Below are positions 1,634 through 36,509 of a stretch of DNA of 64,000 bases, piece after piece (positions within the stretch are counted from its first letter, which is position 1; each line of letters starts with the position of its first letter). A program made the translations under genes and the position numbers. Source of the DNA: a virus; the IMG/VR virus record IMGVR_UViG_3300045988_161114, positions 1-64,000 of that record; one strand, 5' to 3'. The notes under the pieces were generated by a model. The model was not told the origin of the DNA. It saw nothing but the letters and a program-made list of their open reading frames with translations, and ran no database searches.

Positions 1634-1640
1634 TTTATAC

Positions 1641-1729: not shown

Positions 1730-1731
1730 TA

Positions 1732-1806: not shown

Positions 1807-1811
1807 TATAT

Positions 1812-1881: not shown

Positions 1882-1892
1882 CCGTTTTATAG

Positions 1893-1906: not shown

Positions 1907-1920
1907 TTTTTATTTGCTTA

Positions 1921-2017
1921 AAAATTTTCAAAGCCCACGGCTCCGTACTATTCCGTACCCGTTTGGCGCATGACCCGCACGGACGTCGAGTACAACGCCA
2001 AGGCTCTTGAAAATTTT
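1921..2017 (+). ncRNA. candidate structured small RNA (GC-rich island A)
   Basis: A ~66-nt GC-rich core with no ORF, set in an AT-rich background. It is closed by a ~15-bp inverted repeat, aaaattttcaaagcc / ggct(c)ttgaaaatttt. The inner stem is ttggcg/cgccaa. It sits inside the tRNA cluster. Confidence 0.45.
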
Positions 2018-2041
2018 TTCTGGCTTTTAGTCAGATTTTTA

Positions 2042-2057
2042 CATTCCTTAGGGAATG
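2042..2057 (+). repeat. TTAG-loop hairpin (cattcc-ttag-ggaatg)
   Basis: Perfect 6-bp stem with a ttag loop, followed by AT-rich tract. Same motif family as 1893, 4473 and 38361. Confidence 0.5.
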
Positions 2058-2071
2058 ATATATTTATTTAT

Positions 2072-2123
2072 TTTTTGATTATCTGATCTGATCACAAGTG
2101 ATCATATCATATCTAATCAAAAA
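2072..2123. repeat. imperfect GATC-rich palindrome
   Basis: Outer arms are tttttgatta / taatcaaaaa and inner arms tgatcac / gtgatca. Three GATC sites fall within ~20 nt. Confidence 0.5.
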
Positions 2124-2144
2124 CAGGCATACGTCTGACTTTTA

Positions 2145-2220
2145 GGTTATTTAGTGTAGTCGGTTAGCACATATCCCTCATAAGGATATAGCAGTAGTTC
2201 AAGTCTACTAATAACCTCCA
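2145..2220 (+). tRNA. tRNA with CAT anticodon (Met or lysidine-Ile2), CCA encoded
   Basis: Acceptor ggttatt/aataacc. Anticodon stem tatcc/ggata with loop ctCATaa. T arm agtag-ttcaagt-ctact. Confidence 0.8.
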
Positions 2221-2226
2221 AGTATA

Positions 2227-2297
2227 GCTGCCATAATATAATGGTATTATATTGGCTTTGTAATCCAGGTATATAGGTTCGATTCCTATTGGCAACA
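2227..2297 (+). tRNA. tRNA-Thr (anticodon TGT)
   Basis: Acceptor gctgcca/tggcaac with one C-A mismatch. Anticodon loop ttTGTaa. T arm atagg-ttcgatt-cctat. No CCA. Confidence 0.6.
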
Positions 2298-18303: not shown

Positions 18304-20868
18304 ATGGCAAGAGTTGCAAAAGAAGTAAAAGAAGGCAAAGAAATAGTTGCCGAAAGTAGTTCTACTATATCTAAAGATGATAGAGCTGCGATAGAAATAC
18401 TGAAAAGAAGTATGAATAAAAAGTATGGTGATGGCGATCAAGTATTCATAACAGATTATGATATGGATCTTGAAGGTATCCCTACTGGTAGTGCAATATT
18501 GGATGCTCTTATTGGTAATGGTGGTTGGGCAGAAGGACGTGTTCATGAAATTCATGGGCAATCAGGTAGTGGTAAATCCTCTATTGTTACATTGACTTGT
18601 GCTAATGCACTTAAGAAGCATCCTGATAAATTTATACTATACATTGACGCAGAGCAAGCACAAAACTTCCGCTATATGAAGTTACTTGGACTTGATATGG
18701 AAAAAGATGATAGAATTCTTTTTACTCAGGTTAATTCTGCTGAAGAAGCATTTGATATTATAAATAATTCTATTAAAACAGGTGCATTTAGTCTTATCGT
18801 TTTAGATAGTGTGCCTGCAATACAAACTAAACGTGAAATGAGTGGTGATTTCACTCAAGAAACTATGGCCGAGAAGGCTAGGTTCCTGTCTAAATCTATC
18901 CCTCAATTATTGAAACCTCTGAAACGTTCTAATACTACTCTGATCTTTGTTAATCAAGTAAGGGACAAAATGGATCTTTGGGGTGGGATGGTAACTCCAG
19001 GTAATATAAGCTTTTATTTTTTGACATATCATGTTATAATAGTCTTAATATAGAAAACATTAATTGTTTTAATTTTAAGGTTATAATATGAGATGGTCAA
19101 AATCTGAAGACGATATAATAATTGATTTTATCAGAAATACAAATAATAGAACATTCAAAGATTTACATGAGATGTTTCCAGATAGAACTATATATTCTAT
19201 AAAAATGAGATACCGGTATCGTAAAAGAAATATGTCTGGTAATTATATAACAAAAATCTGGACCAAAGATAAAATAAATATTTTACTCGAAAATTATACT
19301 AATAAAAATATATATGAACTTAGTGAAATTCTCGATATTAAATATTCTACTATTCATGCTAAATTAAGGGATATGAATTTAGTCCCTAAACAAATATTAA
19401 AAAGCTATACAGAAGAAGATGATTTATTTATAAAGGAAAATTATAAAAAAATTAAAACTTCTGATATTGCTTTTGAACTTAAAGTATCTCCCGATGCTAT
19501 TATTCAGAGAGCAGCAAAATTAGGACTTAATACATCTAAAACTAAAAATTATACTGAAGATGAGAAAATTTTTATAATTGAAAATTATTCTAAAATTCCT
19601 ATTGCTGAAATTTCCAAAGTAACTGGAAGAAGTTATTCTTCTATAAATAGTTTTGCTAGAAGAAATAATTTAATTCCGTATAGTAAAATACTGTATGAAA
19701 ATAATGTTAAATTTATTTTGGAAAATTATGAGTCAATGACAGATTCCGAGATATCAAGAAAAATTTCTTTATCAATAGATGCTGTTGAAAATATCCGGAA
19801 AAATCATGGGATATATAAGTCCCCTGCGTTAATTAATGGGATTTCATCTATTGAAAAATTTGTAAAAAATGTTCTTGACGAATTATCCATTAAATATGTT
19901 TATTGTGCAGAACTTGGAAATTTTAAACCTGATTTTCTTTTAGAAAATGGTAAAATTATCGAAGTTAATGGTGATTATTGGCATTGTAATCCTCGTATTT
20001 ATGGCAATGGGCCAGAAGATGAGATACAAGTTAAGCATGTATTAAGAGATTATTCTAAGAAATGTTATTATTTGTCAAATAATATCGATTATATAGAGGT
20101 CTGGGAACATGATATTAATCATAACCCAAACCTAATTGTCGAACAGATAAAGGCTTTCTGCCGTTCATAGTAGAAATATTATGAATTATTATAGCGGAAT
20201 TAAGCGAGAAAATCCTCCCTGTTTCATAGGACAACTCGAACCGAAGGCTAGCTTTAAAAGGCTGGTCAGGGGCAACGCATAGAAGCTGAAACTAATAAAA
20301 AGAATATAATGCTTCCACGAGGCCGCTATACCTAAGTCTTTTTAGATATGGTAAAAAAATATGCTGAACTACATTGTAATGATGTAGAAGCAAAGATAAA
20401 AAACTTTGCGATAACAAATTGGGAAGAGCAATTCCATTTTACTCAAGTACACGTGTTAAAGTTAACTCTACTCCATCTATGCGAATAAAAGGATTAAATG
20501 ATAATTATATTGGCCAAAGAGTAGAATTTTCTGTTGTTAAAAATAAAGTTGGCAATCCGTTTGGCGTTGCTGAAAGCAATCTTTATTTTGGTGTAGGTTT
20601 TAATCCTGTTGAAGAATTAGTTTCTACAGCTGTTAAAGCTGGTATTATCACTAGGGCTGGTTCATGGTTTACTATCCCAGTTAAAAATGATAAAGACGAA
20701 TATATTAAATGTCAGGGTGAAAACGGCTGTTGTGTTTATTATAAAGAGCATCTAGATCATTTAGAAGAATTAAGACAAATTGTTAATAAACATAAAGATT
20801 CTATTTTTGATCAAATGTCTGATGAAGATGTAAAAGAGGCATCTGAAAGTGAAGTATTAGATGAGTAA
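18304..20868 (+). CDS. recA: RecA-family recombinase, two exons: join(18304..19002,20422..20868)
   Basis: IPTGSAILDALIGNGGWAEGRVHEIHGQSGSGKSS (Walker A) and LIFVNQVRDKM. The spliced junction GMVTPG|GRAIPFYSSTRVKV restores the RecA motif TTGGNALKFYASVR. Confidence 0.85.
19003..20421 (+). mobile_element. group I intron (1419 nt) carrying a homing-endonuclease ORF
   Basis: The exon ends in U (ccaggt|) and the intron ends in G (aaattg|gga). The 3' ~250 nt (ggaattaagcgagaa...ccacgaggccg...aaatatgctgaac) is clearly homologous to the ORF-less dnaE introns at 29686 and 30414. Confidence 0.85.
19088..20170 (+). CDS. intron-encoded homing endonuclease: five HTH repeats plus a Vsr-like/PD-(D/E)XK nuclease domain
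   Basis: Five ~45-aa repeats (WSKSEDDIIIDF.., WTKDKINILLENY.., YTEEDDLFIKENY.., YTEDEKIFIIENY.., YENNVKFILENY..). These are followed by FKPDFLLENGKIIEVNGDYWHCNP...IEVWEHD. Confidence 0.65.
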   Translation: MRWSKSEDDIIIDFIRNTNNRTFKDLHEMFPDRTIYSIKMRYRYRKRNMSGNYITKIWTKDKINILLENYTNKNIYELSEILDIKYSTIHAKLRDMNLVPKQILKSYTEEDDLFIKENYKKIKTSDIAFELKVSPDAIIQRAAKLGLNTSKTKNYTEDEKIFIIENYSKIPIAEISKVTGRSYSSINSFARRNNLIPYSKILYENNVKFILENYESMTDSEISRKISLSIDAVENIRKNHGIYKSPALINGISSIEKFVKNVLDELSIKYVYCAELGNFKPDFLLENGKIIEVNGDYWHCNPRIYGNGPEDEIQVKHVLRDYSKKCYYLSNNIDYIEVWEHDINHNPNLIVEQIKAFCRS

Positions 20869-22117: not shown

Positions 22118-23479
22118 ATGGATTTTGTGTCTACTCCTGAGAATCCCGATGGGGATATTAAACCAGAAGATTTTGGTATGTATACTAATCTTCATGCCCA
22201 TAGTGTTTTTAGCCCACTAGATGGTTATGGTAAACTAGATGATTACTGTAAAAGAGCTAAAGCTCTTGGATTCAAAGGTTTATGCCTATCAGAACATGGC
22301 AATATGATGGGTCATAAAGACCAAGAGAAAATATGTAAGAAATATGGTATAAAACCTATTTATGCAAATGAAGGTTATATGACTCTTCATAGCGGTGCGA
22401 GAAAAGAAAAAATAGAAGGATATAAAGCTAATTACCATATCCTTCTTATAGCTATGAATGATGTAGGTTATAAAAACCTTATGAAGATTACCTCTATTGC
22501 GTGGACTAGATATAAGTATTATAAGCCCAGATTTGACCTTGATCTTTTAAGAGAGAATAATGAAGGCATTATTTGCACTAGTGCATGTTTAGGTGGACCA
22601 ATTAATCAGCTGTACCTCGATGGTAAAGAAGAGGAAGCTGAACAGATTGCTCTAATCCTTAAAGGTATTTTTAAGGATAGGTTCTATCTTGAAAAAACCT
22701 ATACTGGATTAAAAGAACAGGACATTGCAAATAAAAATTTAGTTGAATTGTCCAAGAAGCATAACATACCAATGATTATTACTTGTGATAGTCATTATGT
22801 TTATCCGTGGGAATCTGATTCCCATATGAAACTTGTTATGTTAAACACAGGTGGTCAATTAAATAAAGCTGCCAAAAGTGTAGATTTAACTGATACTGAA
22901 AAAGATGATTCTGATGTAGATAATAACTCTATGTTCTATCAGCCATCACAGTATTATGTCAAACCTCATCATGTTCTTGTTGAGGAATATTATTCTAATC
23001 CAGAAGATGCTGAAGCTTTTGCAAATACCAACAAGATTGCCGAGATGTGTAATGTTACATTACCTAGTAGTGATAGAATGGTTTATCCAGAACCATTTGA
23101 TGATCCAGATAAGGTTTTAAGAGATCGTGCATATGTATGGTATGATGTATATACAAAAGATTTTGAAGATGACAAGAAAAAGCTTTATAAAGATAGACTT
23201 GAGGAAGAATTAAGTCTCTACGAAAAGATGGGTTTTAGCTCTTATCCTCTTGTACTTCAAGATATTATTGAATATGCTAAAAATAATGATATTATGACTG
23301 GCCCTGGACGAGGCAGTGCTGCAGGAAGTTTATTGTCATTTGCACTAGGGCTGACCGCTATTGATCCTATTCCATATGGACTATTATTCTCCAGATATTT
23401 AAATTCTGGCCGTGCTAAATATCCTCTTATTGAAATTCCTGGATATCCATTAAAAGAATGGAATAATAAAGAAGTGTAA
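22118..23479 (+). CDS. dnaE: DNA polymerase III alpha (DnaE) N-terminal fragment: PHP domain up to the palm active-site motif
   Basis: NLHAHSVFSPLDGYG, LSEHGNMMG, and GPGRGSAAGSLLSFALGLTAIDPIPYGLLFSRYLNSGRAKYP. The last aligns with E. coli [42 protein letters not shown]. The match stops exactly before PDFDVDF, after which 17 unrelated codons run to a stop. Confidence 0.85.
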   Translation: MDFVSTPENPDGDIKPEDFGMYTNLHAHSVFSPLDGYGKLDDYCKRAKALGFKGLCLSEHGNMMGHKDQEKICKKYGIKPIYANEGYMTLHSGARKEKIEGYKANYHILLIAMNDVGYKNLMKITSIAWTRYKYYKPRFDLDLLRENNEGIICTSACLGGPINQLYLDGKEEEAEQIALILKGIFKDRFYLEKTYTGLKEQDIANKNLVELSKKHNIPMIITCDSHYVYPWESDSHMKLVMLNTGGQLNKAAKSVDLTDTEKDDSDVDNNSMFYQPSQYYVKPHHVLVEEYYSNPEDAEAFANTNKIAEMCNVTLPSSDRMVYPEPFDDPDKVLRDRAYVWYDVYTKDFEDDKKKLYKDRLEEELSLYEKMGFSSYPLVLQDIIEYAKNNDIMTGPGRGSAAGSLLSFALGLTAIDPIPYGLLFSRYLNSGRAKYPLIEIPGYPLKEWNNKEV

Positions 23480-23497
23480 ATAGTTTCTTTTAGGTAT

Positions 23498-23519
23498 AGC
23501 CACTTTTAAGTAAGTGGCT
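23498..23519 (+). terminator. hairpin downstream of the dnaE N-fragment (weak terminator)
   Basis: 8-bp stem agccactt / aagtggct. The downstream T-tract is poor. Confidence 0.4.
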
Positions 23520-23588
23520 TATCATATATAAGATATAAGTGGATATACTTATCCCGTAGAATATATGATTTCTTTTTAAGGAAATAAA

Positions 23589-23798
23589 ATGCCTGAAACA
23601 AGTAAACCTGTTGGATTCAGCATTCCTCAATGGACTACTGGTACTAGCTCTCTAATGAGAACTGATGGTGCTGGATCCGTTAAACGTGTATCTACAAATG
23701 ATGATATCAGAATTAATGATATTAATGATATGCGAACTTTTTTAGAATCTCTATCAGAACATACTCATAGTTATACAGACTCTATTGGGAGCTGTTAA
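23589..23798 (+). CDS. hypothetical 69-aa protein (possible precursor peptide or small structural protein)
   Basis: First ORF of the cassette, with aaggaaataaaatg at the start. It ends ...SEHTHSYTDSIGSC. The next ORF overlaps its stop codon (taatg). Confidence 0.55.
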   Translation: MPETSKPVGFSIPQWTTGTSSLMRTDGAGSVKRVSTNDDIRINDINDMRTFLESLSEHTHSYTDSIGSC

Positions 23799-24439
23799 TG
23801 ACTAGCAAATTCTCTTTTTATGATTTTGATAATTTTGTTATAAATGATCCAAATAAAGAGCGTCTTGGTGATTTTCTAAAAAACGAATGGCAAAGAGATA
23901 AAGATGACACTTTGCTTTGTGAAAGATTGTTTTTCCTTGCCAATGATTTAGAAGATCTAGAATTCGATATAGATATTTATGTCTTTATTAAAGATTTATT
24001 CAATTGGGCAATAGAACAAATTTCTCAAAAAGAGGGTACAGATAAAAATTCTAAAGAATTTATAAACTGTATTAGTTTATTGCGTTTTGGATTGGGTCTT
24101 GTTGAGATGTATTATGTCCCAAGAAGCTTTTCAAAACTTGTTGATAAAACAAAAGATGACAAAAATAATATTCCCTCTACAGTTAGTGCAATAGTTAATT
24201 CTCTTATTGCTACATATGATCTTTGGAATGGAATAGAAGAATCTGATTTCATTGATCTTAAATATCAGTTTGTATTTGACTATGAGACTGATGTTTATTA
24301 TGCTGTAATTAGAGATTATGTTGCTAATATGAATCAAGAAATTAAACCTATTGTTACTCATCCATTTGTTTTATTTGATGATAATAAATCTGGTATTGAG
24401 ACTTTTAAGAAAAGACTTGCTGAAGCTTGTTCAAAATAA
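23798..24439 (+). CDS. hypothetical acidic protein
   Basis: 213-aa ORF, translationally coupled to the preceding gene. Confidence 0.7.
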   Translation: MTSKFSFYDFDNFVINDPNKERLGDFLKNEWQRDKDDTLLCERLFFLANDLEDLEFDIDIYVFIKDLFNWAIEQISQKEGTDKNSKEFINCISLLRFGLGLVEMYYVPRSFSKLVDKTKDDKNNIPSTVSAIVNSLIATYDLWNGIEESDFIDLKYQFVFDYETDVYYAVIRDYVANMNQEIKPIVTHPFVLFDDNKSGIETFKKRLAEACSK

Positions 24440-24445
24440 TATAAT

Positions 24446-24471
24446 AGCCTGCCTTATGGCGGGCTTTTTTA
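24446..24471 (+). terminator. rho-independent terminator
   Basis: Stem agcctgcc / ggcgggct, loop ttat, then tttttt. Confidence 0.7.
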
Positions 24472-24480
24472 GGACTTTAA

Positions 24481-25584
24481 ATGTTATTACCTATTGTATT
24501 TAGTAATCATTGTGATCTTGATTGTACATATTGCTGTATACAATCCAAAAATATGAGTCCATTTTTAGATATCAATAAAATTGATAACTTTATTGCAACC
24601 TATTCTACTAAAAAGAATATAGTAGAATTTTATGGTGGTGAACCTACATTACACAAAGATTTAATTTTTGAGACTATAAAGCTTATTAATGATAAGCATT
24701 CTGACAAAGAATTTTCTTATCGTTTGTATACAAATGGTGTATTTAAAGATTATTCTGTTGACGAGATTAAATTCATAGCATCAAATATAGACGAGATACT
24801 ATTATCTCTTGATGGATTTGATTACGAAGACAATACAAAACGTTTTACATCTATTGATGAATATAATTCTGTAATTAATAATCTGAAAGTTCTTATATCT
24901 AATGATGCTAATGTAGGAATAAGTTCTGTTTTGTATAATATGTCTAACTATTCTAAGATATATGATAATTATAAAAAATTTTTTGACATTGGTGTTAGAT
25001 ATTTTTCTTATGAGCCGTTGACTATATTTCAAACAGATAAGGCTGTTGTTATTCCTAAGAAGTTTATGAAAGCTTTTACAAAAAATATTTATAAGGTTGT
25101 AAAAGATATTTCTGATAATGATTTAATAGGCGAAGTAGAACTATTTGTTGCTAAAGAGTTATTATCTTCTTCTTGGTATAATAATGGGGAAAAGACACAA
25201 TGCAGTAAATGGATTAGGGCATTAAGTCCTCGTGGCAATATATACATGTGTAGGGATCATGCCGCAAATGAAGAAGAGATGTTCTTTTCTCCAAAAGTAA
25301 TACAATTCTTTAACAAGAATAATTTAAAAATAGATAATGGATCATTTCCATTTGTTGAACAAAATGAAAATAATTTAACTCTGTGTTCTGTTAAAAATAT
25401 TCAATACAGAGATTTAAAAATAGATGACAAGTTATATTGGTTAGATGATGAATGGCAAGATTTAATAATAAGGCCATTGTATCAAATTATTATGGCTATT
25501 GATGTTGGTGATAAGTCCATCAAGCCATATATAGAAAAATATATTTCTATGCTCCCTGCTATATTTGAAAGACTTAAAATATGA
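24481..25584 (+). CDS. radical SAM enzyme with twitch/partial-SPASM-like C-terminal Cys motif
   Basis: FSNHCDLDCTYCC gives C-x3-C-x2-C. EFYGGEPTLH is also present. Downstream, CSKWIRALSPRGNIYMC gives C-x10-G-x4-C, the first half of the SPASM/twitch signature. Confidence 0.75.
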   Translation: MLLPIVFSNHCDLDCTYCCIQSKNMSPFLDINKIDNFIATYSTKKNIVEFYGGEPTLHKDLIFETIKLINDKHSDKEFSYRLYTNGVFKDYSVDEIKFIASNIDEILLSLDGFDYEDNTKRFTSIDEYNSVINNLKVLISNDANVGISSVLYNMSNYSKIYDNYKKFFDIGVRYFSYEPLTIFQTDKAVVIPKKFMKAFTKNIYKVVKDISDNDLIGEVELFVAKELLSSSWYNNGEKTQCSKWIRALSPRGNIYMCRDHAANEEEMFFSPKVIQFFNKNNLKIDNGSFPFVEQNENNLTLCSVKNIQYRDLKIDDKLYWLDDEWQDLIIRPLYQIIMAIDVGDKSIKPYIEKYISMLPAIFERLKI

Positions 25585-26144
25585 TTTCTATTAGAAAAGC
25601 TACAGAATCTGATGTAGAATTCATGATCGAATGTATCAATAAAGATTATCAGATTAATGATTATCAAATGGATTTTGATGATTGGATTGCTGACGTATTC
25701 CCGGGCGGCAGAGATTTAAAAACAATTCAAACATATGTTAATCCTAAATTACCCCAAGATTTATATATTGTTAATACTGGATACAAAGATGTTGGATTCT
25801 TTAGTCAAGATGTAGATGAAACTAATTCTACAATTGGCGGTATTGCCTTTATGCATAGACATGCATGTAAAATGGCTATATTAAAAATAATTAAAGCCAT
25901 TGCTATTAGGGGTACTTTAATATCTGATAATTATAGATATTTTGAATACAATACATGGAATAAGTTAATTGTTACTGTTGTTCAGTCAGTTATTCCTAGT
26001 TTAAAAGAATTTAAAATAACCGATGGTTATCGTATTGTAGTTGGTGAAACTAATTACAGTAAAGAAAAGGTCGATGCTGTTAAAGATAAGTATAATATCA
26101 CAGACCTCACAAAAGATTTTACATTTTGTTTTGATGATAGATAA
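25581..26144 (+). CDS. GNAT-like N-acetyltransferase (tentative)
   Basis: It starts MISIRKATESDVEFMIECI, typical of GNAT N-termini, and has the right size (187 aa). The Q/RxxGxG/A motif is not clearly seen. Confidence 0.35.
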   Translation: MISIRKATESDVEFMIECINKDYQINDYQMDFDDWIADVFPGGRDLKTIQTYVNPKLPQDLYIVNTGYKDVGFFSQDVDETNSTIGGIAFMHRHACKMAILKIIKAIAIRGTLISDNYRYFEYNTWNKLIVTVVQSVIPSLKEFKITDGYRIVVGETNYSKEKVDAVKDKYNITDLTKDFTFCFDDR

Positions 26145-26145
26145 T

Positions 26146-26799
26146 ATGAAGCCAGAGTTTAAGACTGAAAATTGTCCTCCAGGATTTTATATAGATGGCG
26201 CCATTCAATGGAGTGCGTCAAAAGAGTATTATACATATTCATTAATATTTCAAAGAATATTTAATTCAATGTTTCCGCCAGGTAAAGCTCCTCAAGAGTT
26301 TTTGAATATACTTGTAGTTGGAGGTGGAGACTTCCAACTTATTAGTGGAAAGACATTTTTATCAAATGAGAATAGAATAACGCTTGTTGATCCTGGTGTT
26401 ACTGAATATTTTAAACTTCTTGAAGAGAATAAAGAAAATATTCCTGAAAGGATTTATAATGAACAAAGGCATTGTTATGAATCTAAGTCCTTCTTAAATA
26501 TTCATGAAAAAACTATTCAGGAATTCTTAAAAGATAATACTCAGACTTTTGATATTATTGTGGTAGATTTAATAGATGAACTTGCTGCTGATCCATATAA
26601 TGAATATGCGTCAGGGCTATATAAAGCTTTGCGTCCTGAAGGAGTTATGATTGGATACGGCGGATTAAGCTATACTGATTTTGTTGTAAATGGATCAATT
26701 CTTCCATTGGAATGGAATGATGTAGTTATACATAAAAAGTATTTTAAATCTTGGAAAGATAATGGTGTCTTTTATGGGCTCAGAAAACCTAAGAAATAA
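26146..26799 (+). CDS. spermidine synthase-like (aminopropyltransferase / class I SAM-dependent fold)
   Basis: ILVVGGGDFQL (compare GGGDGG), ITLVDPG, FDIIVVDLIDELAADPY (compare YDVIIxDxxDP) and LRPEGVM. The ATG at 26146 was used rather than the track's 26041, which overlaps the previous gene. Confidence 0.5.
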   Translation: MKPEFKTENCPPGFYIDGAIQWSASKEYYTYSLIFQRIFNSMFPPGKAPQEFLNILVVGGGDFQLISGKTFLSNENRITLVDPGVTEYFKLLEENKENIPERIYNEQRHCYESKSFLNIHEKTIQEFLKDNTQTFDIIVVDLIDELAADPYNEYASGLYKALRPEGVMIGYGGLSYTDFVVNGSILPLEWNDVVIHKKYFKSWKDNGVFYGLRKPKK

Positions 26800-27346
26800 A
26801 ATCCATAACATTATAAAATGGATGGATGATAATTCTTTCTGTAAAAATATTATTGAAGATGACAAAAACGGGAAGATTATAAAAAAGAATGTTGATGCAA
26901 TAGATCATATTTGTTTTTCCAAGTCTAAATGGTCTGCGTTTCCTGTATATCCATTTTCATGGAACGATAATTTATATGGAATAGAAAACATCTTATTTGA
27001 AAATAAGATTGGATTCGCTTGGATAAATAAATTCTCTGAAGGGTCTATTGTTAGCGAACATTCTGATTCTGAAAAAATAAACGAATATATTAATTATCGC
27101 ATAATAATGTCTATGTCAGATGGTAAATGTTTGTTTAAGACGGATCATAAGCATAGACTTGATACAATGTATCAGTTTTCTGTATTTAAGCCTATGGAGC
27201 CACATTCTCTTATTCAAGAAGAGAATGATGGATATTATCTGATATTAGATGTATATAAAGAAGATTTATCTATTGATGATTTAAAAACCATCTATAAATA
27301 TTACAAAGAAAGATATATAGATGATATTCCAGAAACGAATAAATGA
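26762..27346 (+). CDS. cupin-type 2OG-Fe(II) dioxygenase-like (Asp/Asn beta-hydroxylase-like), paralog 1
   Basis: SIVSEHSDSE provides H-x-D, followed by YRIIMSM and a distal His in MEPHSLIQ. The start is uncertain (26762, 26774 or 26822). Confidence 0.4.
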   Translation: MVSFMGSENLRNKIHNIIKWMDDNSFCKNIIEDDKNGKIIKKNVDAIDHICFSKSKWSAFPVYPFSWNDNLYGIENILFENKIGFAWINKFSEGSIVSEHSDSEKINEYINYRIIMSMSDGKCLFKTDHKHRLDTMYQFSVFKPMEPHSLIQEENDGYYLILDVYKEDLSIDDLKTIYKYYKERYIDDIPETNK

Positions 27347-27929
27347 ATTAAAAGATTCAATATCTGGTTATTTTTCTGATATTTTAGAAGAGTATAAAGC
27401 TGCAAGCTTTGATAATACTATGGATACCTATACTGGTATTTGGCGTAGTGCTGTTGTATATGGTATTGATATAATCAATACAGAAGTATTGCGTAAAACT
27501 AATTTCCGTGGCTATGAAAAACTTTTAAGAGGCATAGATTCTTTTAATAGAATATTGGCTATGGATAATTATAAAATAGCCTCTATTGAATTTAATTACT
27601 TTGAAGATTGCAAAGTAGAACCTCATGTCGATGATCATAATTTTGACGATAGAAGAATAAGAATATTTATTCCTATATCTTATAATAAAAAGCCTGAAGT
27701 TTATATCCATGAAGGAAATCCTTTTAATTCAGAGGAAACTATAAGTGGATATAATGATGGCACACCTTTTATCTTTGATTGTACATTAAAACATTCAGCT
27801 AATATACAAGGAACAGCAACTTGTGCAATAGTGGATTTGCTACCAAAAGATATTAGCGCATTAGACTATATTAAATATTGTTCTAAGCCTTTAATGTATT
27901 ATTGGGAAAAAACTTTTAAACTTACTTAG
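27321..27929 (+). CDS. cupin-type 2OG-Fe(II) dioxygenase-like (Asp/Asn beta-hydroxylase-like), paralog 2
   Basis: KVEPHVDDHNFDDRRIRIFIPI provides H-x-D then R-x-h-h-P, and FIFDCTLKHSANIQG provides the distal His. This is the pattern of the Asp_Arg_Hydrox family as recalled. Confidence 0.45.
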   Translation: MIFQKRINELKDSISGYFSDILEEYKAASFDNTMDTYTGIWRSAVVYGIDIINTEVLRKTNFRGYEKLLRGIDSFNRILAMDNYKIASIEFNYFEDCKVEPHVDDHNFDDRRIRIFIPISYNKKPEVYIHEGNPFNSEETISGYNDGTPFIFDCTLKHSANIQGTATCAIVDLLPKDISALDYIKYCSKPLMYYWEKTFKLT

Positions 27930-27942
27930 AAAGAAAATTAAT

Positions 27943-28206
27943 ATGAACCAAGAATTAGATAAAGCAATAGCATTGTATCAAGAAGGCTTAGATAATGTAA
28001 TGAAGCCTGTTTATGATGCTATATTTTGTGTAGCAAGTAAAGGCGAAGATTCTTATGTATTTAAATTAGATACATATGAGCCGCATATTGTTGATAAAGT
28101 TATCTCTATTCTTAAAAAGAAAAAGTTCACTATTGAAAAAATATCTGATACTGAATTTGAAGTATGGGGATGGGCATATGAAAATCCTCAACTTTATTTA
28201 TTCTAA
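27943..28206 (+). CDS. hypothetical protein
   Basis: 87-aa ORF, the last gene of the cassette before the dnaE C-gene. Confidence 0.6.
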   Translation: MNQELDKAIALYQEGLDNVMKPVYDAIFCVASKGEDSYVFKLDTYEPHIVDKVISILKKKKFTIEKISDTEFEVWGWAYENPQLYLF

Positions 28207-28218
28207 TGTAAGATAAAA

Positions 28219-31200
28219 ATGAAATATAAAACTTTAAGAGAATTAGTATTAAGCCACTCCCAAGAGGAGTGGTTTTTGCATAATAAGAAGAATATCATGT
28301 TTGAGCTTAATCATTGTGAGCTCCACCATATTGATTCTTATTTTTTAAATCTTTACAATGCTGGTATTAAAGATCTAGATAATCCTAATAGTAGTAATAT
28401 TTTATATTTACTAGGTATGACTAGTGTTGAACCACATAAACGTATTGATACTGTTGGTGGTGGCTTCCCGGATTAAATTAGTCCCTTTTGTTAAGAAATT
28501 AACAATAGAAAACTCTGTGAAAACGGTGAAACTCCTGTAAGGACAATACCGTGCGAAACTTTACCAAAGTAAAGGACGTGTAACGACTATTATGTAGGGC
28601 CAAGTGGTTCGAAGCGCAGAGCGCCTAAGTCTTCATAGATATGGCGATGAGATAGTCTGCTCTATATAGTAATATATAGCTGGGTTTTATTCCCGGGTAT
28701 GGATTAACGACCCATACTGAACATAAAGGATCGATAGCGATTTCAGTAATGATAAACGTGAAAAAGTATTTGATTATTTAAAATCTAAATATGGTGATGG
28801 TTTCGCACATTTAGGTACTATTACTTATACTGCTGGCAAACAAGTATTTAAATCAGCTGCCCGCATTCATGGTATGTCATTTGAAAAGGCAAATAAGATT
28901 TCTAATCTTATGCCTGACATAAATTGTCCCAGATTAGAAGTTTTATTAGAAGAAAATTCTGATATAAAGAAACTTTACAATTCTGATACAGAAATTAAAG
29001 AAATATGGGATGATGCTGTTAAATTGCAAGATTGCATTAATGCAACAGGGGTTCACGCTTGCATGTTATCAGGCACCAAAGTTACCATAAAAAGAACTAA
29101 TAATTCTGAACCTGAATACATGAATATTGAAGATGTTAAAGTTGGATATCTGGCTTTAACACATCTATTAAATTGGAAGCCTGTAGTAGATGTTCAGGTT
29201 AATGAATCTAAGTTAAGTAATGTTGTGGCATTTACATACCAGCAAACTGATTATGACGAATTTTCAGTTTTAAGATGTACATCTAATCATCCTATATTTG
29301 TAATTGACACTATTGAAGATGATGATGATCAAAAAGATGAACTTAATGGTACTTGTTATTGGATAAATGCCGGCGATATTAAACGTCGTTATAGAGTTGT
29401 TGGTGCAGACATTAATGGATCTTTTAGAACTCCAAGAATGGTTCTTCATACACATCCATATTCTACTGTATATAATGATTCGAATGATGAAACAGTCAGT
29501 GTATATAACCTTACTGTTTTAGATGATTCCTCATATATCGCTAATGGTATTGTAGTACATAATTGCGGAGTAGCATTATCTGATAGACCATTATGGGAAG
29601 ATGTTCCATTATGGGATAGTAAAGGTAAAACTGTTACCCAATGGGAGGGTAACAAAATTGAAGAATATGCTGGTATTGTTAAGCTAGGAATCTGGCGTTT
29701 CCAATAGGAATATTGGTTATTATTACACCGGAATTAAGCGAGAAGGCTGTGATGCTAACTCGAGTCCGAAGGCTATTTTAAAGCAATAGTCAGGCGCAGA
29801 GCATAGGTAGTGAAACTGTTAATCAGAATATAATCTACCCACGAGGCCGGTGCAACCAGAACGGTTGAAAAAATATGCCGAACCAGATTAAAAAGAAGTC
29901 TGGATTGTTAAGATAAAAAACTTAACACTATATATTTTATATATATAGAATTTTTGAGACATCCTTGGTTTAAAAACGCTTGGTGTACTCGAGTATGCTA
30001 AGAAACTTATTAAAGATAGACATGGTATTGATATAGATTGGTATACATTACCAATGGATGATGAAAAAGCATATAAGATTATGTGGGATAGACGTAATTA
30101 TGGAATATTCCAATTTGAAGAATCTGGTATGTCTTCTTTTATTAATAAGTGTAAACCTAAAACAATACATGATATAGCAGTATGTGTTAGTACATGGCGG
30201 CCAGGACCAATGTCGGTGACTGGACTTGTAGAGCGTATAATAGGTAAGATTAGTGGAGAAATCCCTAAGACTGACTTTATATTCCCAAAATATAATTATA
30301 TTTTTGAAAATGCACATAACGAAATTGTCTTCCAAGAAGGTTTCATCAGATTATCAATGGATATGTGTGGATTCACAGAAATAGAAGCGGATAAACTAAG
30401 AAAAGCAGTAGGTGAGTAATTGCCCCTTGTTTTAGTAATGAAACAATGTGTATCGAGCAAAATCGGTGAAGGCTGAGATGCTAATACCGAGGTAAGCTTA
30501 TAGTAACTATAAGCCACCGTAGAGCGTAGAGATTGAAAAGATATAATATCTCCAAGAGTGTTCGACATCCTTATAGGATGAAAATGTACGCCGAACTTAT
30601 GCAAATATGAAGTATAAGAACTATTGGATAAAAAGCCAATAGGATAACATAATTGAAAAAAGATGCTGCTTTGCTTGCGTCATTAAAAGACAAGTTCATT
30701 AATGGTGCTGTTGCTTCTGGTGAAGATGAGAGAAAAGTTAGTTCATTTTGGGAAGAACTAATGCTGTTTGCGCAGTATGCGTTTAATGCTTCGCATGCGT
30801 ACTCGTATGGTCATTTGACCTATTATACTGCTTGGCTTAAAGCCAATTATCCAAATGAGTTTTATTGTTCTATTATAAGTTGTGAAACTGAGGCTTCTAC
30901 TCAGCGTATTTATATGGAAGATGCTAAAGCTCATGGTATTAAAATTTTACCTCCTAATCTTAATGAATCTGATAGTGGTTTTACACTAGATAGGAATAGT
31001 GATATTATTTATGGTTTATCTGGTATTGCTAATATTGGTGAACCTATTTATAAGCAAATTATAGAATTGCGCCCGTTTAAAAGTTTCGGCGATTTCTTAT
31101 TAAAAACACATCTGTTTGGATCTAGTATTACTAAGAAAGCTATTGATGCTTTAATACGTTCTGGATCTATGGATTGTTTTGGATATAAACGAAGCGTTAT

Positions 31201-32089
31201 GCTTCGTTCTTATGAGAAGTTTAAATTAGACTTTGATCCTAAGAAATCATTTAAACGTGAAATTGCTAAAACTGGCGAAATGTCTGATGAAATTAGGGCA
31301 AGATATAAAGAGTTCTTAGAAAAGGAATCTGAATATTTTGAGGATAAAACATTTAAAGAATTCTCATTGTTTGATATTTTAGAAGACGAAAAGAACTTTA
31401 TTGGAGTGTATATTTCCGGCGATCCAATGGATTTAGTAGTAAAAACTGTAACCGAAAGACACTTTACATCAGAAGAAGTTAAATCTGCTGTAGAGTATAA
31501 AGGTATGTTTTCTGGTTCTGTTATCGCTTATATTTCTTCTGTTCGTGCTTTGAATACCCGTACTGGTAAGAAGATGTGCTTCTTAGATTGTATAGATCAT
31601 GAGGGGAAACGTTTTTCTGCTACTGTATTTGATCCTAATTATACAAAACTGAAAGATATTTTACGTTCTGGTAATTATATACAATTAGTTATTTCTGCTA
31701 AACCAAGTTATAAGGGCAACGGCGAAATAGATTCTATTGTTAATATGGCGATAGATTTAGGTGAACGGTGTAAAGAACAAGTCCGCGAGGAAGAGCATAA
31801 AAATAAAGTTAAAGAAGCCTTTATTATATTAGATGATATTCCTAGTAGTGTAAGATTTAAATCTATTTTGAATAAAGTTCAAGAATTAATTCCTGAAGAT
31901 AAATTTGATTCAGATGGAGCTGTATCAATAGTGGTAAAAGTTCCTTCTAAGAAATATGAATCTGTTAATATCGAAAGGAAAGATTCTGACTTTGAAATGA
32001 GATTTGGGCCTTTTTATACTAAACTTATTGATGTTGAAGTAATCAGAATGCTTAATAAGCTTCTTGATGTTACAATAGCTACAAGATAG
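28219..32089 (+). CDS. dnaE: DNA polymerase III alpha (DnaE) C-terminal gene, four exons: join(28219..28473,28730..29685,29957..30413,30656..32089); contains a mini-intein
   Basis: Spliced junctions restore DnaE motifs: GGGFPD|IDSDF (PDxDxDF), AGIVKL|DILGLKTL (KxDFLGL) and ADKLRKAVG|KKDAA (RRAMGKKK). Also present: IFQFEESGM, WRPGPM, FNASHAYSY, and an OB-fold-like tail. The 85-aa exon 1 carries a degenerate copy (SYFLNLYN...NILYLLGMTSVEP) of the end of the N-fragment. Confidence 0.85.
28474..28729 (+). mobile_element. group I intron (IA2, T4 td-like; 256 nt, ORF-less) in dnaE
   Basis: The 3' half, gagatagtctgctctatatag...ttcccgggtatggattaacgacccatactgaacataaagg, is near-collinear with the T4 td intron 3' half (GAGATATAGTCTGCTCTGCATGG...TTCCGGGGTAAGATTAACGACCTTATCTGAACATAATG). 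U at -1 and a terminal G. Confidence 0.85.
29060..29563 (+). mobile_element. mini-intein (168 aa, no endonuclease domain) in DnaE
   Basis: Begins CMLSGTKVTI (block A) and has LRCTSNHPIFV (TxxH, block B). It ends VYNLTVLDDSSYIANGIVVHN with +1 Cys. Excision gives TGVHA-CGVALSD, aligning with E. coli GKHAGGVVIAP. Confidence 0.85.
29686..29956 (+). mobile_element. group I intron (271 nt, ORF-less) in dnaE
   Basis: The exon ends in U (aagct|) and the intron ends in G (tttttg|a). The sequence (ccggaattaagcgagaaggctgtgatgctaa...ccacgaggccgg...aaatatgccgaac) is homologous to the 3' part of the recA intron. Confidence 0.8.
30414..30655 (+). mobile_element. group I intron (242 nt, ORF-less) in dnaE
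   Basis: The exon ends in U (gtaggt|) and the intron ends in G (ataattg|aaa). It shares gaaggctgagatgctaa and aaatgtacgccgaac blocks with the 29686 and recA introns. Confidence 0.8.
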
Positions 32090-32120
32090 GCTGAGAGAAA
32101 TCTCAGCCTTTTCTTTTTGT
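32088..32120 (+). terminator. rho-independent terminator after dnaE
   Basis: Stem aggctgaga / tctcagcct, loop gaaa, then ttttcttttt. Confidence 0.75.
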
Positions 32121-32721: not shown

Positions 32722-33657
32722 ATGCATTTTTTTAATAAATTAAATAATCATTTAACACGTAAGCCTGCCCTTAAAGCCAAACGATTACCAACAATGTATC
32801 CTAGCGCTGCTAGTTGTCGTGATATGGACAATCCAGCAATAGTGTATGGTGCATGTATGAGACAGCAATGGTATCGATGTGCTGGATATAAAGAAAGTGA
32901 TCCATCTGGTGAGTATAGCCAATATATATTTGCTGCTGGTAATCTATGGGAAGATTGGCTTACTGAACAATGTAAACAAATGGGGATTTGGGAAGCTAAC
33001 AGTGTAAAATGGTCACTACCAGAATATTATTTATCTGGTGAGGTTGATATTGTTGTTAGAGATCCTGAAACTGATGAAGTTATAATTATTGAATCTAAGA
33101 CTTATAGTAGTAATAATTATAAAGCTAAGTCTGAATTAATTGGTTTATCAGGTCGTACTCCTACTCCTAAAGTTCAAAATGTAATGCAGGCTGCATTATA
33201 TTTAATGTATTTTTCTAAACCAGAAAACGGCGGAGTTAAAAGAGTCTTGTTGACTTACTTTGATAGAAGCTGTGCTGGCCCAGAAAACAATCAAGAATTC
33301 TGGATTACTTTAAATCCAGTTGAAGAAGGTAAAACCTTTATTCATATTGATTGTAAAAATTCTAAGGGTGCATCATTTTCTTATGATATGCCCGGCATAA
33401 CTATGGAAAATCTACTTGCTCGTTATACAGAATTGATAAATTCTTTACGAGAAAGTCAAGAAGTTCCACCTCGTCCAGATTATGAACATGTATATTCTGA
33501 TGAAAAAGTCATTAGGTTATACAATGCTGGAGAGATTGCAAAAACCAATTACGAAAAATGGGAATCTAATAAAACTAAATATCCTATTGGTGATTGGCAA
33601 TGCGCTTATTGTAACTATAAAACTTTATGTAAAAAACAACAAGAAACATTAGCTTAA
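32722..33657 (+). CDS. Cas4/RecB-family PD-(D/E)XK exonuclease with Fe-S Cys cluster
   Basis: GEVDIVVRDPETDEVIIIESKTYSS (D...E-x-K), VMQAALYLMYF (QxxxY), an N-terminal Cys (GACMRQQWYRCAG) and a C-terminal CAYCNYKTLC (C-x2-C-x5-C). Confidence 0.7.
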   Translation: MHFFNKLNNHLTRKPALKAKRLPTMYPSAASCRDMDNPAIVYGACMRQQWYRCAGYKESDPSGEYSQYIFAAGNLWEDWLTEQCKQMGIWEANSVKWSLPEYYLSGEVDIVVRDPETDEVIIIESKTYSSNNYKAKSELIGLSGRTPTPKVQNVMQAALYLMYFSKPENGGVKRVLLTYFDRSCAGPENNQEFWITLNPVEEGKTFIHIDCKNSKGASFSYDMPGITMENLLARYTELINSLRESQEVPPRPDYEHVYSDEKVIRLYNAGEIAKTNYEKWESNKTKYPIGDWQCAYCNYKTLCKKQQETLA

Positions 33658-33995: not shown

Positions 33996-36509
33996 ATGTC
34001 TATTAAGCAACTTACCGACTTTAAGACTCAGATGGATAAGTTGCGTATGTTTCTTCCCCAATATTTGGAAGAGCATGGTCATGATGTGAAAGACGGACAT
34101 AAAATAAGATGTCTGTCTCCAGATCATGATGATCATACGCCATCTATGTCTATGTTTAATACTGAAGAGGGGTACCCTCTTCTTCGTTGTCATGGCTGTA
34201 ATACAGTTATGGATATATTTAATGTAGCAAATGTCTTAGAAGGCAGACCTATTATGGGTGCAGGCTTAATAGACAATACTGCTACATATCTTGCATATAA
34301 ATATGGTGTTGAGCTTGTATATAAAAAACTTAGCGAAGATGATATATATGAACTTAATATGTATCAAGCATATGAAGCTGCTGCAAATTATATAATTTCT
34401 CAAGAAGATTTCAATGAGCTGCAAATAGCAGAAATGAAGAAAAGAAATTTTTCTAGAGAATTTATGAAAGCTTATAAAGTTGGCATATGTAATGATGTAG
34501 ACAAGCTTAGAGAGCATCTTAAGTCTTGTGGCTATATGGCATCATTCATAGATGAGATTGACCTTGGGAATAAGCGTATATTTAATTCTAATAATATAAT
34601 TTATACGATATGTGATGACAATGGTCGACCTGTTGCTTTCCAAGCAAGGAATCTTGCTTATGATGGCAAAGTAGATGAAAGCACTGGCAACTTTATAAAT
34701 GGGCCAAAGTTTATTGGATCTACAATATCTAATATTAAGAAAAATATTTACCGTAAAAAAGAAAGACTTTATCTTTTAGATAAAGCTAAGCGTAATGAAA
34801 GTGTTATTGTAGTAGAAGGTAATTCTGATGCTTTATCACTACATAATAATGGAATTACTAATGCTGTTGGTATTTGTGGTTTAAATTTTTCTGAACATCA
34901 TTTAAATACATTGCGGCGCAATGCTATTTATGAAATTATTATGTGTCTTGATAATGATGATGCTGGGACTGAGAAAGCTAAAGCTATTCTTGATGATGTG
35001 GCATCTAAGATACATGATATAAAAATTAAATTTATATTCTTGCCTGATGAGTATGATGAAGCTGGAAATAAACTTAAAGTTGATCCTGATGAATATATTC
35101 GTAGGCATGGTAAAGAAGCTTTTAAAGCTTTACCTGTAATAGATTCATTTTCTTGGCGATTGCAAAGATTTGATTCTGATACAGATCCTGAAGTAATATC
35201 ACTAGCAGTGATTCCTATTATATGTGCTGAGCCATCTTATATACGCAGAGAGCGTATGATTAATGAGCTTGCACTATATACTGGATATAGTGATAAAGTT
35301 ATTAGGGATGAGATTGAAAAGATCGAATCTGATAAGACTCGTAAAGTTGAAACTGCCAAGAAACGTGTTCTTGAAAATCTTGTACGTAATCTTGAAGAAT
35401 CGTCTTCTGTTGATGCTGAATTAGCTCTTAATGAAGCTCTTACTGAAATTTATGAAATTAACCAGAATTTTAATGCTGGTATAATGGAAACCTCTTCCCG
35501 TATTAATAATATTTTAGCTATTAAAGAATACCAAGAAGATACTGATAGCTTTAGTCTTATTAATTGGGGCAAACCACAATTTCATTCTTTGAATGCTGCT
35601 ACTGATGGAGATACCTCTGGTAAGGTAATATTCATTGGCGGCGGGTCTAATGTTGGTAAAACTTCGTGGGAAGTTAATCTTGCATGGAGAATTGTAGAAA
35701 ACAATCCAGATTCTATGGTTGTATTCCTATCTATTGACGATAGCGCTAAAGAATTGTTGCCTCGTATTTGTTGTTTTGACGCATGTTTAAGAGCATGGGA
35801 AAATGATGATATACGCTTATTTAAGCATTTAGATATTAATAAATTCGCTAAACCAGATTTATATAAAGATAATCCAGTTCTTTATGCATCTATTAAAGAT
35901 GAAAGAGAAATTTTCTATAAGAAATTTCTATCTTATGCAAGAGAAGATAGATTTGTTCTGTATGATTCAATAGATGGTAGAAGTTTAGATTTTATCGAGA
36001 CTCTACTTCGTACATATAGAGATAAATATCCTAATAGAAGACTGTACTTCTTCTTGGATAACTTCCATTTGGTTCAATTAAATAATGGTTCTGAAGGTAG
36101 AGAGAAATATAAAACTCTATCTCATGAAATAAAGGCATTGGCAGTTAAATATAATTCTACTGTTGTTAGTACAGTTGAATATACTAAGATGCCTCTTAAT
36201 CAGAAACCTGATAATAATAATATTGCTGAATCTAACAGTCTTGTATATGATAGTAATTTGATTATGCATGGTTGGAATGAGCTTCATGGTTTAAGAGAAG
36301 AGGCTACTGCATATCATATTGATCCAGATGATCCAAAACGATATAAACGTCCTATTGTAGAATGGGCCGTTGGTAAAAATAAAATAGCTGCATTTAAAGG
36401 TAATATATATACTAAGTCATGGCCTGAAAAGGCATTCTTTGTTGAAATAAGTGAAACTGAGTATAAAACCATTGTAGCTGAAAATACTGCTTATGAAAAA
36501 GGACTATAA
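33996..36509 (+). CDS. bifunctional DNA primase / DnaB-like replicative helicase
   Basis: Zinc finger CLSPDHDDHTPS...CHGC. TOPRIM motifs VVEGNSDALSL and CLDNDDAG. Walker A FIGGGSNVGKTSW and Walker B-like YFFLDNFHL. Confidence 0.8.
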   Translation: MSIKQLTDFKTQMDKLRMFLPQYLEEHGHDVKDGHKIRCLSPDHDDHTPSMSMFNTEEGYPLLRCHGCNTVMDIFNVANVLEGRPIMGAGLIDNTATYLAYKYGVELVYKKLSEDDIYELNMYQAYEAAANYIISQEDFNELQIAEMKKRNFSREFMKAYKVGICNDVDKLREHLKSCGYMASFIDEIDLGNKRIFNSNNIIYTICDDNGRPVAFQARNLAYDGKVDESTGNFINGPKFIGSTISNIKKNIYRKKERLYLLDKAKRNESVIVVEGNSDALSLHNNGITNAVGICGLNFSEHHLNTLRRNAIYEIIMCLDNDDAGTEKAKAILDDVASKIHDIKIKFIFLPDEYDEAGNKLKVDPDEYIRRHGKEAFKALPVIDSFSWRLQRFDSDTDPEVISLAVIPIICAEPSYIRRERMINELALYTGYSDKVIRDEIEKIESDKTRKVETAKKRVLENLVRNLEESSSVDAELALNEALTEIYEINQNFNAGIMETSSRINNILAIKEYQEDTDSFSLINWGKPQFHSLNAATDGDTSGKVIFIGGGSNVGKTSWEVNLAWRIVENNPDSMVVFLSIDDSAKELLPRICCFDACLRAWENDDIRLFKHLDINKFAKPDLYKDNPVLYASIKDEREIFYKKFLSYAREDRFVLYDSIDGRSLDFIETLLRTYRDKYPNRRLYFFLDNFHLVQLNNGSEGREKYKTLSHEIKALAVKYNSTVVSTVEYTKMPLNQKPDNNNIAESNSLVYDSNLIMHGWNELHGLREEATAYHIDPDDPKRYKRPIVEWAVGKNKIAAFKGNIYTKSWPEKAFFVEISETEYKTIVAENTAYEKGL

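Follow-up and report, generated by a model that had tools for sequence, protein, structure and literature searches.

A DnaE-type polymerase gene divided within the catalytic palm in a lineage of large uncultured phages

Two genes share the hallmarks of DnaE

We studied the dnaE locus in a 64-kb stretch of viral DNA (hereafter the window; IMG/VR record IMGVR_UViG_3300045988_161114), which is part of a 184,711-bp contig from a human gut metagenome (ENA ERZ914781, run ERR589438; k127_25176). The dnaE region is a phage replication module of low GC content (~30%) with every gene on the + strand; all features of the locus given below lie on this strand. Bacteria use the alpha subunit of DNA polymerase III (Pol III alpha, family C) as their main replicative polymerase, as a rule in the form of a single chain. 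In the window, the DnaE hallmarks (the PHP domain, the GS motif, the DxD strand, the third catalytic aspartate, the fingers and the helix-hairpin-helix (HhH) domain) are all present, spread over two polypeptides. Instead of the single chain of ~1100-1200 aa typical of Pol III alpha there are two open reading frames (ORFs), an N-half and a C-half, and the same holds for all relatives of the lineage.

The N-half gene (22118..23479) encodes 453 aa and covers the PHP domain and the palm from its start through GPGRGS. It matches the Pfam PHP model (7e-41) and profile positions 12-105 of 260 in PF07733, the NTPase model of Pol III alpha. The nine PHP metal ligands (H26, H28, D35, H60, E85, H107, C157, D224 and H226) vary little or not at all across an alignment of 60 sequences, and ~110 palm residues lie past the PHP domain. 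GPGRGS itself (23300..23317), read from the sequence as the hG[GS] nucleotide-binding motif of a Pol-beta-like palm, is invariant among relatives. Canonical DnaE sequence runs to ...LNSGRAKYP (P436, 23423-23425) and gives way to a C-terminal tail of 17 codons, LIEIPGYPLKEWNNKEV (23426..23476), and a stop. The tail follows the motif P-[LM]-[IV]-E-[FIL]-x-x-[YF]-P-x-x-[EY]-[WY] and is kept in all close relatives as well as in distant ones. Past the stop there is a hairpin (AGCCACTT / AAGTGGCT, 6-nt loop; 23498..23519), which has no T run and was not called in a terminator scan. The gene, its 17-codon end, the stop and the hairpin agree with a first-pass annotation of the window, whose coordinates hold.

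The same annotation had considered that the N-half might turn out to be an unexpressed pseudogene remnant. For the whole gene, measured against close relatives, pN/pS is 0.03-0.08; for the tail it is 0-0.10. Additionally, two unrelated inteins (~149 aa and ~206 aa) occur at the same N-half position, GPGRG|S, in relatives (L004-L007, L012 and L013, ~11198-11644; L009-L011, ~11216-11812), which points to an expressed gene and a conserved motif. Because of the low pN/pS and these inteins, the N-half is best read as a real gene, and the pseudogene reading is contradicted.

The polymerase resumes 4.7 kb past the N-half, in the C-half gene (28219-32089). Its four exons (28219-28473, 28730-29685, 29957-30413 and 30656-32089) join into an open product of 1033 aa, which shortens to ~865 aa when a mini-intein (residues 196-363) is removed. 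The intein-free product matches PF07733 positions 69-260, the finger model PF17657 (4e-35) and the HhH model HHH_6 (5e-18); its match to an OB fold is weak and under the cut-off (E=1.4e-3). From ...PDIDSDF on, it aligns to the Pol III alpha of Taq and E. coli, so the earlier proposal that the polymerase continues in a second gene proved correct.

Exon 1 (28219..28473) is an 85-aa leader ending in GGGFPD, and D85 corresponds to the first catalytic aspartate when aligned with the Pol III alpha of Taq and E. coli. Exon 2 (28730..29685) contains the palm and thumb and holds the intein, exon 3 (29957..30413) contains the finger domain (Pfam DNA_pol3_finger), and exon 4 (30656..32089) supplies the remaining fingers, the HhH domain (HHH_6, 2.5e-18), an OB-like C-terminus with a weak match and the stop codon. 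All three catalytic aspartates, in PD|IDSDF and KLDILGL, thus sit in the C-half. The terminator scan found a terminator-like hairpin past the gene (32088..32109).

The leader is related to the end of the N-half

PF07733 positions 69-105 are matched by both halves. When diverse leaders were compared with diverse N-half C-termini in hhalign, they aligned over 57 columns (E=3.5e-4) in the register given by the first-pass annotation; with close relatives only, the match was weak (E=0.013). MAFFT puts the leader on the same segment of full-length DnaEs as the N-half C-terminus. Its counterpart there is LEFELNVINTMNYTDYFLIVWD[FIRFARE]QGIPTG[PGR]GSAAGSLVAFTLGITKIDP[IKYGLLF] followed by 18 residues not shown, with the bracketed segments deleted in the leader. 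The leader therefore lacks GPGRGS and the strand preceding it, and only the N-half retains GPGRGS. We read the leader as a shortened copy of the helices found in DnaE ahead of the catalytic strand. In the other direction, the P-L-I-E-[IF] of the N-half tail may be a relic of the PDIDxDF catalytic strand; this is only suggestive. The PF07733 match of the N-half reaches residue 439, i.e. into the tail.

The leader motif FE[LI]NH[LC]E[LI]H...N-x-NNS-x-I-x-YL-x-G-x-T...GG-x-x-PD is present in all C-halves, and pN/pS of the leader is 0.03-0.13. Strong purifying selection of this kind indicates that the leader and the tail are functional sequence and not a scar. The first-pass annotation had noticed that the leader duplicates the end of the N-half and had interpreted it as the scar of a duplication or allele-mosaic event at an intron-homing hot spot. 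The duplication is borne out by our comparisons. A recent scar or an allele mosaic does not agree with the presence of the leader and the tail in every relative down to ~44% N-half identity or with the low pN/pS. Nor does the split depend on intron 1, as many relatives without it keep both the split and the leader.

Structure predictions were made for the separate halves with AlphaFold2 (AF2). The model of the isolated N-half has a pLDDT of 86, and its top matches in the PDB are Pol III alpha structures. Within it, the strand before GPGRGS (390-399) is modelled as coil, residues 430-436 have pLDDT <50 and the whole stretch 430-444 is coil or of low confidence; the tail appears as coil and then a short helix, also with low confidence. 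For the C-half we used an intron- and intein-free homologue, P0002 (327 aa). Its leader is confidently helical (pLDDT 74-97 over residues 1-80), and its GGFPDIDSD strand (81-94) falls below pLDDT 50. These patterns fit a palm sheet that forms only once the halves meet, although they are no proof of it.

The same data bear on the idea that the C-half alone is the polymerase. In such a case, the leader would stand in for the palm helices, and the N-half would be a free-standing PHP exonuclease or pyrophosphatase, or dispensable. The leader is indeed homologous to the helices that the C-half would need and folds confidently by itself in AF2, the three catalytic aspartates are all in the C-half, and the PHP ligands of the N-half are intact. 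The leader has, however, lost GPGRGS and the preceding strand, both of which are invariant in the N-half across the lineage, and the ~110 palm residues of the N-half past the PHP domain, together with the conserved tail, are under strong constraint. Moreover, the two halves are always adjacent and co-oriented, and in the minimal arrangement they overlap or abut, and the catalytic strand of the isolated C-half homologue is of low confidence. We thus regard a self-sufficient C-half as improbable, albeit the strongest competitor of an enzyme assembled from both halves.

Three introns and a mini-intein interrupt the C-half

Exon boundaries were checked by a junction search that maximised protein continuity, under the rule that each intron is preceded by a T and ends in a G. 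It returned exactly the three junctions of the first-pass annotation (28473/28730, 29685/29957 and 30413/30656). The T/G rule was imposed in the search, and the same three junctions follow from protein continuity as well. All of them read ...T|intron...G|, with P1 hairpins recognizable by eye (GGAU|UA..UAGUCC, GCU|AGG..UCUGGC and GGU|GA GUAA UUGCC).

The exon junctions are confirmed by natural alleles, because those without an intron or the intein read straight through. P0001 (93% identical) has neither intron 1 (...GGGFPDIDSDF...) nor the intein (...GIHACGVALSD...). Intron 1 is missing in P0001, L003-L007, L009, L013 and L014, and the intein is precisely missing in P0001, P0002 (...HACGVA...), L002, L007 and L010-L012. 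L001 is devoid of introns 2 and 3, and L002 of intron 2.

Intron 1 (28474..28729, 256 nt) is a canonical group I intron without an ORF, located between the D85 and I86 codons of PD|IDSDF. Searched alone against Rfam RF00028, it scored 73.8 bits (gathering score 50; E=3e-19) over model positions 1-253. Rfam scans of the whole window at the gathering threshold and of 23300-31000 at E<=10 found zero introns and missed even this one. Since intron 1 was recovered only when searched singly, the negative scan of the whole window is not evidence of absence; the miss is due to speed filters.

Intron 2 (29686..29956, 271 nt) lies within the Leu codon preceding the third catalytic aspartate (VKL|DILGL). 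Intron 3 (30414..30655, 242 nt), which belongs to the same family, follows the Gly codon of RKAVG|KK. Neither gave a match in Rfam when searched alone at E<=10. According to nhmmer, the two resemble each other, several introns of relatives and another copy in the window (20152-20421). Further family members occur in L002, L005, L007 and L012, and the conserved blocks are CGUAGAGCAUAG, GAAUAUAAU, GAAAAUGUAUGCCGAAC and GGAUAACAUAAUUG.

The covariation alignment of this family comprises seven sequences only. RNAalifold yielded P2, P3, P4, P6, P7.1, P8, P9 and P9.1, and to this model we added a P7 pseudoknot, GCAUA/UAUGC, which switches to GCGUA/UACGC in some members. With P7 included, the share of paired cells is 89.6%; shuffles give 67% and slid partners 34-41%, and 0/500 shuffles reached as high a value. 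Compensatory changes were observed in 37 of the 62 pairs, and the P3/P7 pseudoknot forms part of the fold. The order of elements, P3-P4-P5-P6-P7-(P7.1)-P3'-P8-P7', is that of a group I core, and the extra hairpin P7.1 is in a position which we take to be typical of subgroup IA. Introns 2 and 3 are therefore assigned to group I (IA-like) by their covariation-supported P3/P7 pseudoknot topology. As for the three group I introns proposed by the first-pass annotation, the first is recognized by RF00028, and the class of the other two, which are RF00028-negative, follows from this topology.

The family has another member near dnaE. The recA/uvsX-like gene of the window (18304-20868) is likewise interrupted, with exon 1 at 18304 to ~19020 and exon 2 at ~20422 to 20868. 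Between them, an intron of ~1.4 kb encodes a 360-aa ORF (19088-20170) with Myb/HTH repeats and a Vsr/endonuclease-like C-terminus, and its core (20152-20421) is the copy mentioned above.

The mini-intein (29060..29563) comprises 168 aa (CMLSGTKV...GIVVHN, +1 Cys), is inserted in GVHA|CGV and has no endonuclease domain. Its sequence contains the class 1 features, namely Cys1, block B TSNHP, the terminal HN and the +1 Cys, and it matches Pfam Intein_splicing with 26.1 bits (E=8.7e-6; curated cut-off 35.8). With these motifs and the precisely intein-free alleles, the mini-intein of the first-pass annotation stands. After its removal the predicted extein junction peptide is ...ATGVHACGVALSDR.... 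The introns and the intein are presumably competent to splice.

All interruptions fall in catalytic motifs: the break between the genes lies just before P-D, and introns 1-3 and the intein are likewise placed. In the clade as a whole, dnaE has at least seven intron sites and two intein sites. The intron sites of the C-half (at least seven) follow residues 85, 404, 486, 533, 557, 598 and ~601-604; some measure ~1 kb and probably have endonuclease ORFs inside. Leader ORFs also occur on their own, in 38 clusters with lengths of 62-157 aa (mostly 82-116 aa), which indicates that an intron at site 85 is common.

The proximity of the break to an intron raises the question of whether the two halves are rejoined covalently, be it by RNA trans-splicing or a giant intron (23.4-28.7 kb), by a split intein or by protein ligation using the tail and leader. 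The break is one codon from the intron 1 site, and P436 followed by D85 would restore a perfect ...RAKYPDIDSDF. The lineage is rich in introns and inteins, and fractured genes with split inteins are known (PMC2677866). Nevertheless, we consider covalent rejoining very unlikely, because intron 1 is a complete group I intron by itself (model positions 1-253) and is often absent, no second copy or fragment of any intron sequence follows the N-half, and intein features are lacking. Many relatives without an intron at site 85 still have the split, the tail and the leader. The tail starts with Leu and not with Cys, Ser or Thr, and the leader ends in ...GGGFPD|I and not in HN plus a nucleophile; the leader has no Pfam intein match and is homologous to DnaE itself. 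Finally, in three distant relatives (L018-L020), the ORFs abut or overlap in different frames.

The giant-intron, trans-splicing and split-intein forms of this explanation were rejected. The two intron routes fail in relatives that lack intron 1. Removal of the whole insert as one giant intron, which the first-pass annotation had named as the outcome that would overturn its reading, is contradicted by relatives without intron 1, in which the leader is contiguous with exon 2. A split intein was discarded as neither the tail nor the leader has intein features.

A variable cassette occupies the gap between the halves

Between the halves lie eight co-oriented genes (23589..28206), delimited by ORF prediction and compared with Pfam and PHROGs. 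They encode proteins of 69 aa and 213 aa, a radical SAM protein of 367 aa, a 187-aa protein, a spermidine-synthase-like protein of ~222 aa, a 194-aa protein, a 202-aa protein with weak similarity to Asp/Asn hydroxylases and an 87-aa protein. A terminator-like hairpin with a T run follows the 213-aa gene (24446..24465; terminator scan). None of the cassette ORFs matches an endonuclease family or has a nuclease signature in Pfam or PHROGs.

Six of the eight genes occur in the same order in 14/14 close relatives; in the more distant of these, the proteins are only 28-58% identical. Of the other two, the 194-aa and 87-aa ORFs, copies were found in just the three closest contigs. More distant relatives have a smaller or different gene set, so that the slot holds from one to eight genes depending on the lineage. 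The single middle ORF of L018 is not homologous to that of L019 and L020, and one of these ORFs is related to the 187-aa cassette protein of the window. This lack of homology between lineages suggests that the slot carries cargo and not a fixed third subunit. A middle ORF as a conserved third subunit or as an endonuclease was rejected on the same ground and in view of the missing nuclease signature.

Part of the cassette deserves a separate comment. At 23589-25584, a conserved 69-aa ORF ending in ...HTHSYTDSIGSC lies two genes upstream of the radical SAM enzyme with its CxxxCxxC, and the spermidine-synthase-like protein and two possible cupin/hydroxylase-like proteins are encoded nearby. This group could be a module for peptide modification, or for nucleotide or polyamine modification.

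The split is shared by a deep lineage

Searches of IMG/VR brought 14 related contigs with N-halves 77-97% identical to that of the window. In all 14, the N-half is followed by the cassette and by a C-half starting with the leader, and the break is the same. A protein search with the N-half gave ~45 further cluster representatives (425-465 aa, 44-66% identical, PHP and PF07733 only) from contigs of up to 211 kb. Each of the distant N-halves that were read, a subset of these ~45, stops at the same place with the tail ...GRAK-x-P-[LM]-[IV]-E-[FL]-x-x-[YF]-P.... The distant relatives with the same break, tail and leader are on contigs of 24-170 kb. A search of a library of 50% representatives returned mostly full-length DnaEs and added little.

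The simplest layout was observed in L018-L020, where the N-half, one ORF of 182-190 aa and a C-half of 842-858 aa follow one another. A fourth distant contig has a cassette with a radical SAM gene, then a leader exon and then a LAGLIDADG-bearing intron at site 85. Thus, the comparison with related phage genomes that the first-pass annotation had proposed shows the split in all 14 close relatives and in several distant ones. Outside the lineage, the best protein identity between the window phage and INPHARED phages is <=38% (tblastn), and DnaE appears unsplit in the closest of those matches.

The window is drawn from one metagenome contig only, which could speak for a split created by faulty assembly or sequencing, or for a defective genome that was disrupted recently. 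Against this, the same architecture is repeated in more than 20 independent contigs from varied samples and sources (IMG/VR, ENA, Logan and metagenome-assembled genomes (MAGs) of GTDB), and every part is under purifying selection. We therefore give this explanation practically no credence. The comparisons indicate that the split is old, fixed and widespread, and neither a recent nor a decaying scar.

Several observations on the lineage may be added. Some of its contigs (L023, JAYRNA010000040.1; L024, CALAYS010000077.1) belong to MAGs labelled Candidatus Saccharimonadales or 'uncultured bacterium', and an N-half protein (P0064) bears the name 'PHP domain-containing protein [Candidatus Woesebacteria bacterium]'. 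These labels are either a hint of hosts among the bacteria of the candidate phyla radiation (CPR) or a result of mis-binning. In distant relatives, a reverse transcriptase gene (RVT_1) lies a few kb upstream of recA and dnaE (L018 804-2414; L019 283-1599; L020 1-843). It adjoins a ThiF-like gene in L018, and a ThiF-like gene is located upstream in L022 too.

A more remote case is L021, a 13.9-kb Logan contig (ERR14949368) with an N-half-only DnaE, P0102, which is 37% identical, has 431 aa and ends in ...GRSSTPLILSTEMREMIKE. Its gene adjoins rIIB-like and ATP-ligase genes, and the next gene is on the opposite strand. P0102 may represent an independent, or a more dispersed, split at the same site.

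Neighbouring genes

The neighbours of the split dnaE in the replication module are RecA and a primase-helicase. Downstream of dnaE there are a PD-(D/E)xK nuclease gene (32722-33657) and a gene for a fused DnaG-primase/DnaB-like helicase of 837 aa (33996-36509). This synteny of the primase-helicase and the nuclease downstream of dnaE is preserved in the distant L018-L020. Seven tRNA genes are clustered at the start of the window (241-2297).

A polymerase probably assembled from two chains

Taken together, these results are best explained by a DnaE-type polymerase that consists of two polypeptides associating non-covalently into a composite active site, with a break that goes back to one ancient partial duplication. 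We consider this explanation probable. The N-half would contribute an intact PHP domain and the GPGRGS nucleotide-binding part of the palm. After splicing of the three introns and the intein, the C-half would contribute the three catalytic aspartates, thumb, fingers, HhH and C-terminal domains.

The break would have originated in a single ancient event, the partial duplication of ~90-100 codons surrounding the catalytic strand, after which each half would have retained a trimmed copy of the adjacent elements of its partner. The N-half would thus have kept the tail PLIE(I/F)xGYP, and the C-half the 85-aa helical leader minus GPGRGS. These overlaps are now conserved and are probably docking or folding modules, and the gap between the halves would have turned into a permissive slot for cargo genes.

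Some points weigh against such an enzyme. That the halves bind each other and polymerise DNA, and that the tail and leader have a role in this, we infer from the genes. The analysis covers 64 kb of a 185-kb genome, and a second polymerase may be encoded in the remainder. The hairpin at 24446-24465 suggests that in this phage the halves may be on different transcripts, and an equal dosage would then not be guaranteed. Lastly, the homology of the tail to the catalytic strand comes down to a P-x-I-[DE] pattern and the Pfam match to residue 439, and hhalign stopped before the tail.

A bolder version would see the tail and leader as a dedicated docking pair, possibly metal-bridged via the invariant ELNH-x-ELHH-x-D, which makes active-site assembly a regulated step. 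The split would then be an adaptive switch and not a tolerated accident. The timing or dosage of the separately transcribed half, or a cargo product (radical SAM, aminopropyl-transferase-like or hydroxylase-like), would set the start of replication or the nucleotides used. We think that such a switch is unlikely.

Comparison with known split genes

The closest experimental parallels to a non-covalently assembled DnaE are the split gp43 (gp43A/gp43B, a PolB of Aeromonas phages 25 and 44RR), the NrdA of Aeh1 and the T4 topoisomerase gp39/gp60, in which two polypeptides reassemble non-covalently, with co-purification and activity shown experimentally (PMC2988022). As in the phages described here, an essential replication enzyme is broken within conserved sequence, so that two ORFs flank an insertion. 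There are also differences. Here the enzyme is a C-family Pol III alpha, the break falls between the nucleotide- and metal-binding elements of a Pol-beta-like palm, and the flanks bear conserved, overlapping degenerate duplicates. In gp43A/B and Aeh1 NrdA the insert contains a homing endonuclease gene or its remnant, whereas in our lineage it consists of variable cargo of one to eight genes. The earlier cases are also confined to a few phages, whereas here the split is fixed across a deep lineage.

A minimal split Pol III alpha was predicted in group 2.2 jumbo phages, as an NTP-binding and a Mg-/DNA-binding protein (Iyer et al. 2021, PMC7824862). It shares the topological break point, between NTP-binding and Mg-binding subdomains. 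The jumbo-phage version, however, is without PHP and the remaining Pol III domains, is encoded by widely separated genes and occurs alongside a family B polymerase, whereas the enzyme described here is of full length (PHP, palm, thumb, fingers, HhH and OB-like domains) and its halves are neighbours.

In the cyanobacterial split DnaE and in 'fractured genes', protein trans-splicing joins the pieces again (Dassa et al. 2009, PMC2677866). These too are replication genes in two pieces, and fractured genes also have unrelated ORFs between the pieces. In our case no intein motifs were found to flank the break when we tested for them, and the break site differs.

Gut phage genes, of crAss-like and Jug phages, are interrupted by multiple group I introns and inteins (PMC12880540). 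As here, essential genes have group I introns that are short and ORF-less, and also mini-inteins, within their best-conserved motifs, and relatives differ in which of them they carry. A difference is that the family of introns 2 and 3, to which the recA intron also belongs, is missed by RF00028 even when its members are searched singly.

A literature search, in which subscription journals were outside the coverage, did not bring up any phage described as having a split DnaE of full length. A concept from eukaryotic gene families, gene fission by duplication and complementary degeneration, resembles our case in that each daughter keeps an overlapping, partly degenerate copy around the break. 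Here, by contrast, the overlap is short (~70 aa and ~17 aa), lies inside one catalytic domain and is itself conserved.

Implications

These results have consequences for annotation. Existing records of the lineage describe N-halves as 'PHP domain-containing protein' or 'hypothetical protein' and treat leader exons as orphan ORFs (82-116 aa). With such labels, the polymerase of these phages will escape annotators. Additionally, the family of introns 2 and 3 reveals a blind spot in RF00028-based intron detection.

It is worth stressing that the gene concerned is a full-length Pol III alpha, cut between the motif for the incoming nucleotide and the strand carrying the catalytic metals, and that this arrangement is stable across a deep and widespread lineage of large uncultured phages. 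If the halves assemble, a C-family palm can be built from two chains. The break would then be a natural split site with docking modules of its own, of use in engineering and in studies of palm folding, and the gene pair would be a case of gene fission by overlap duplication inside an active site.

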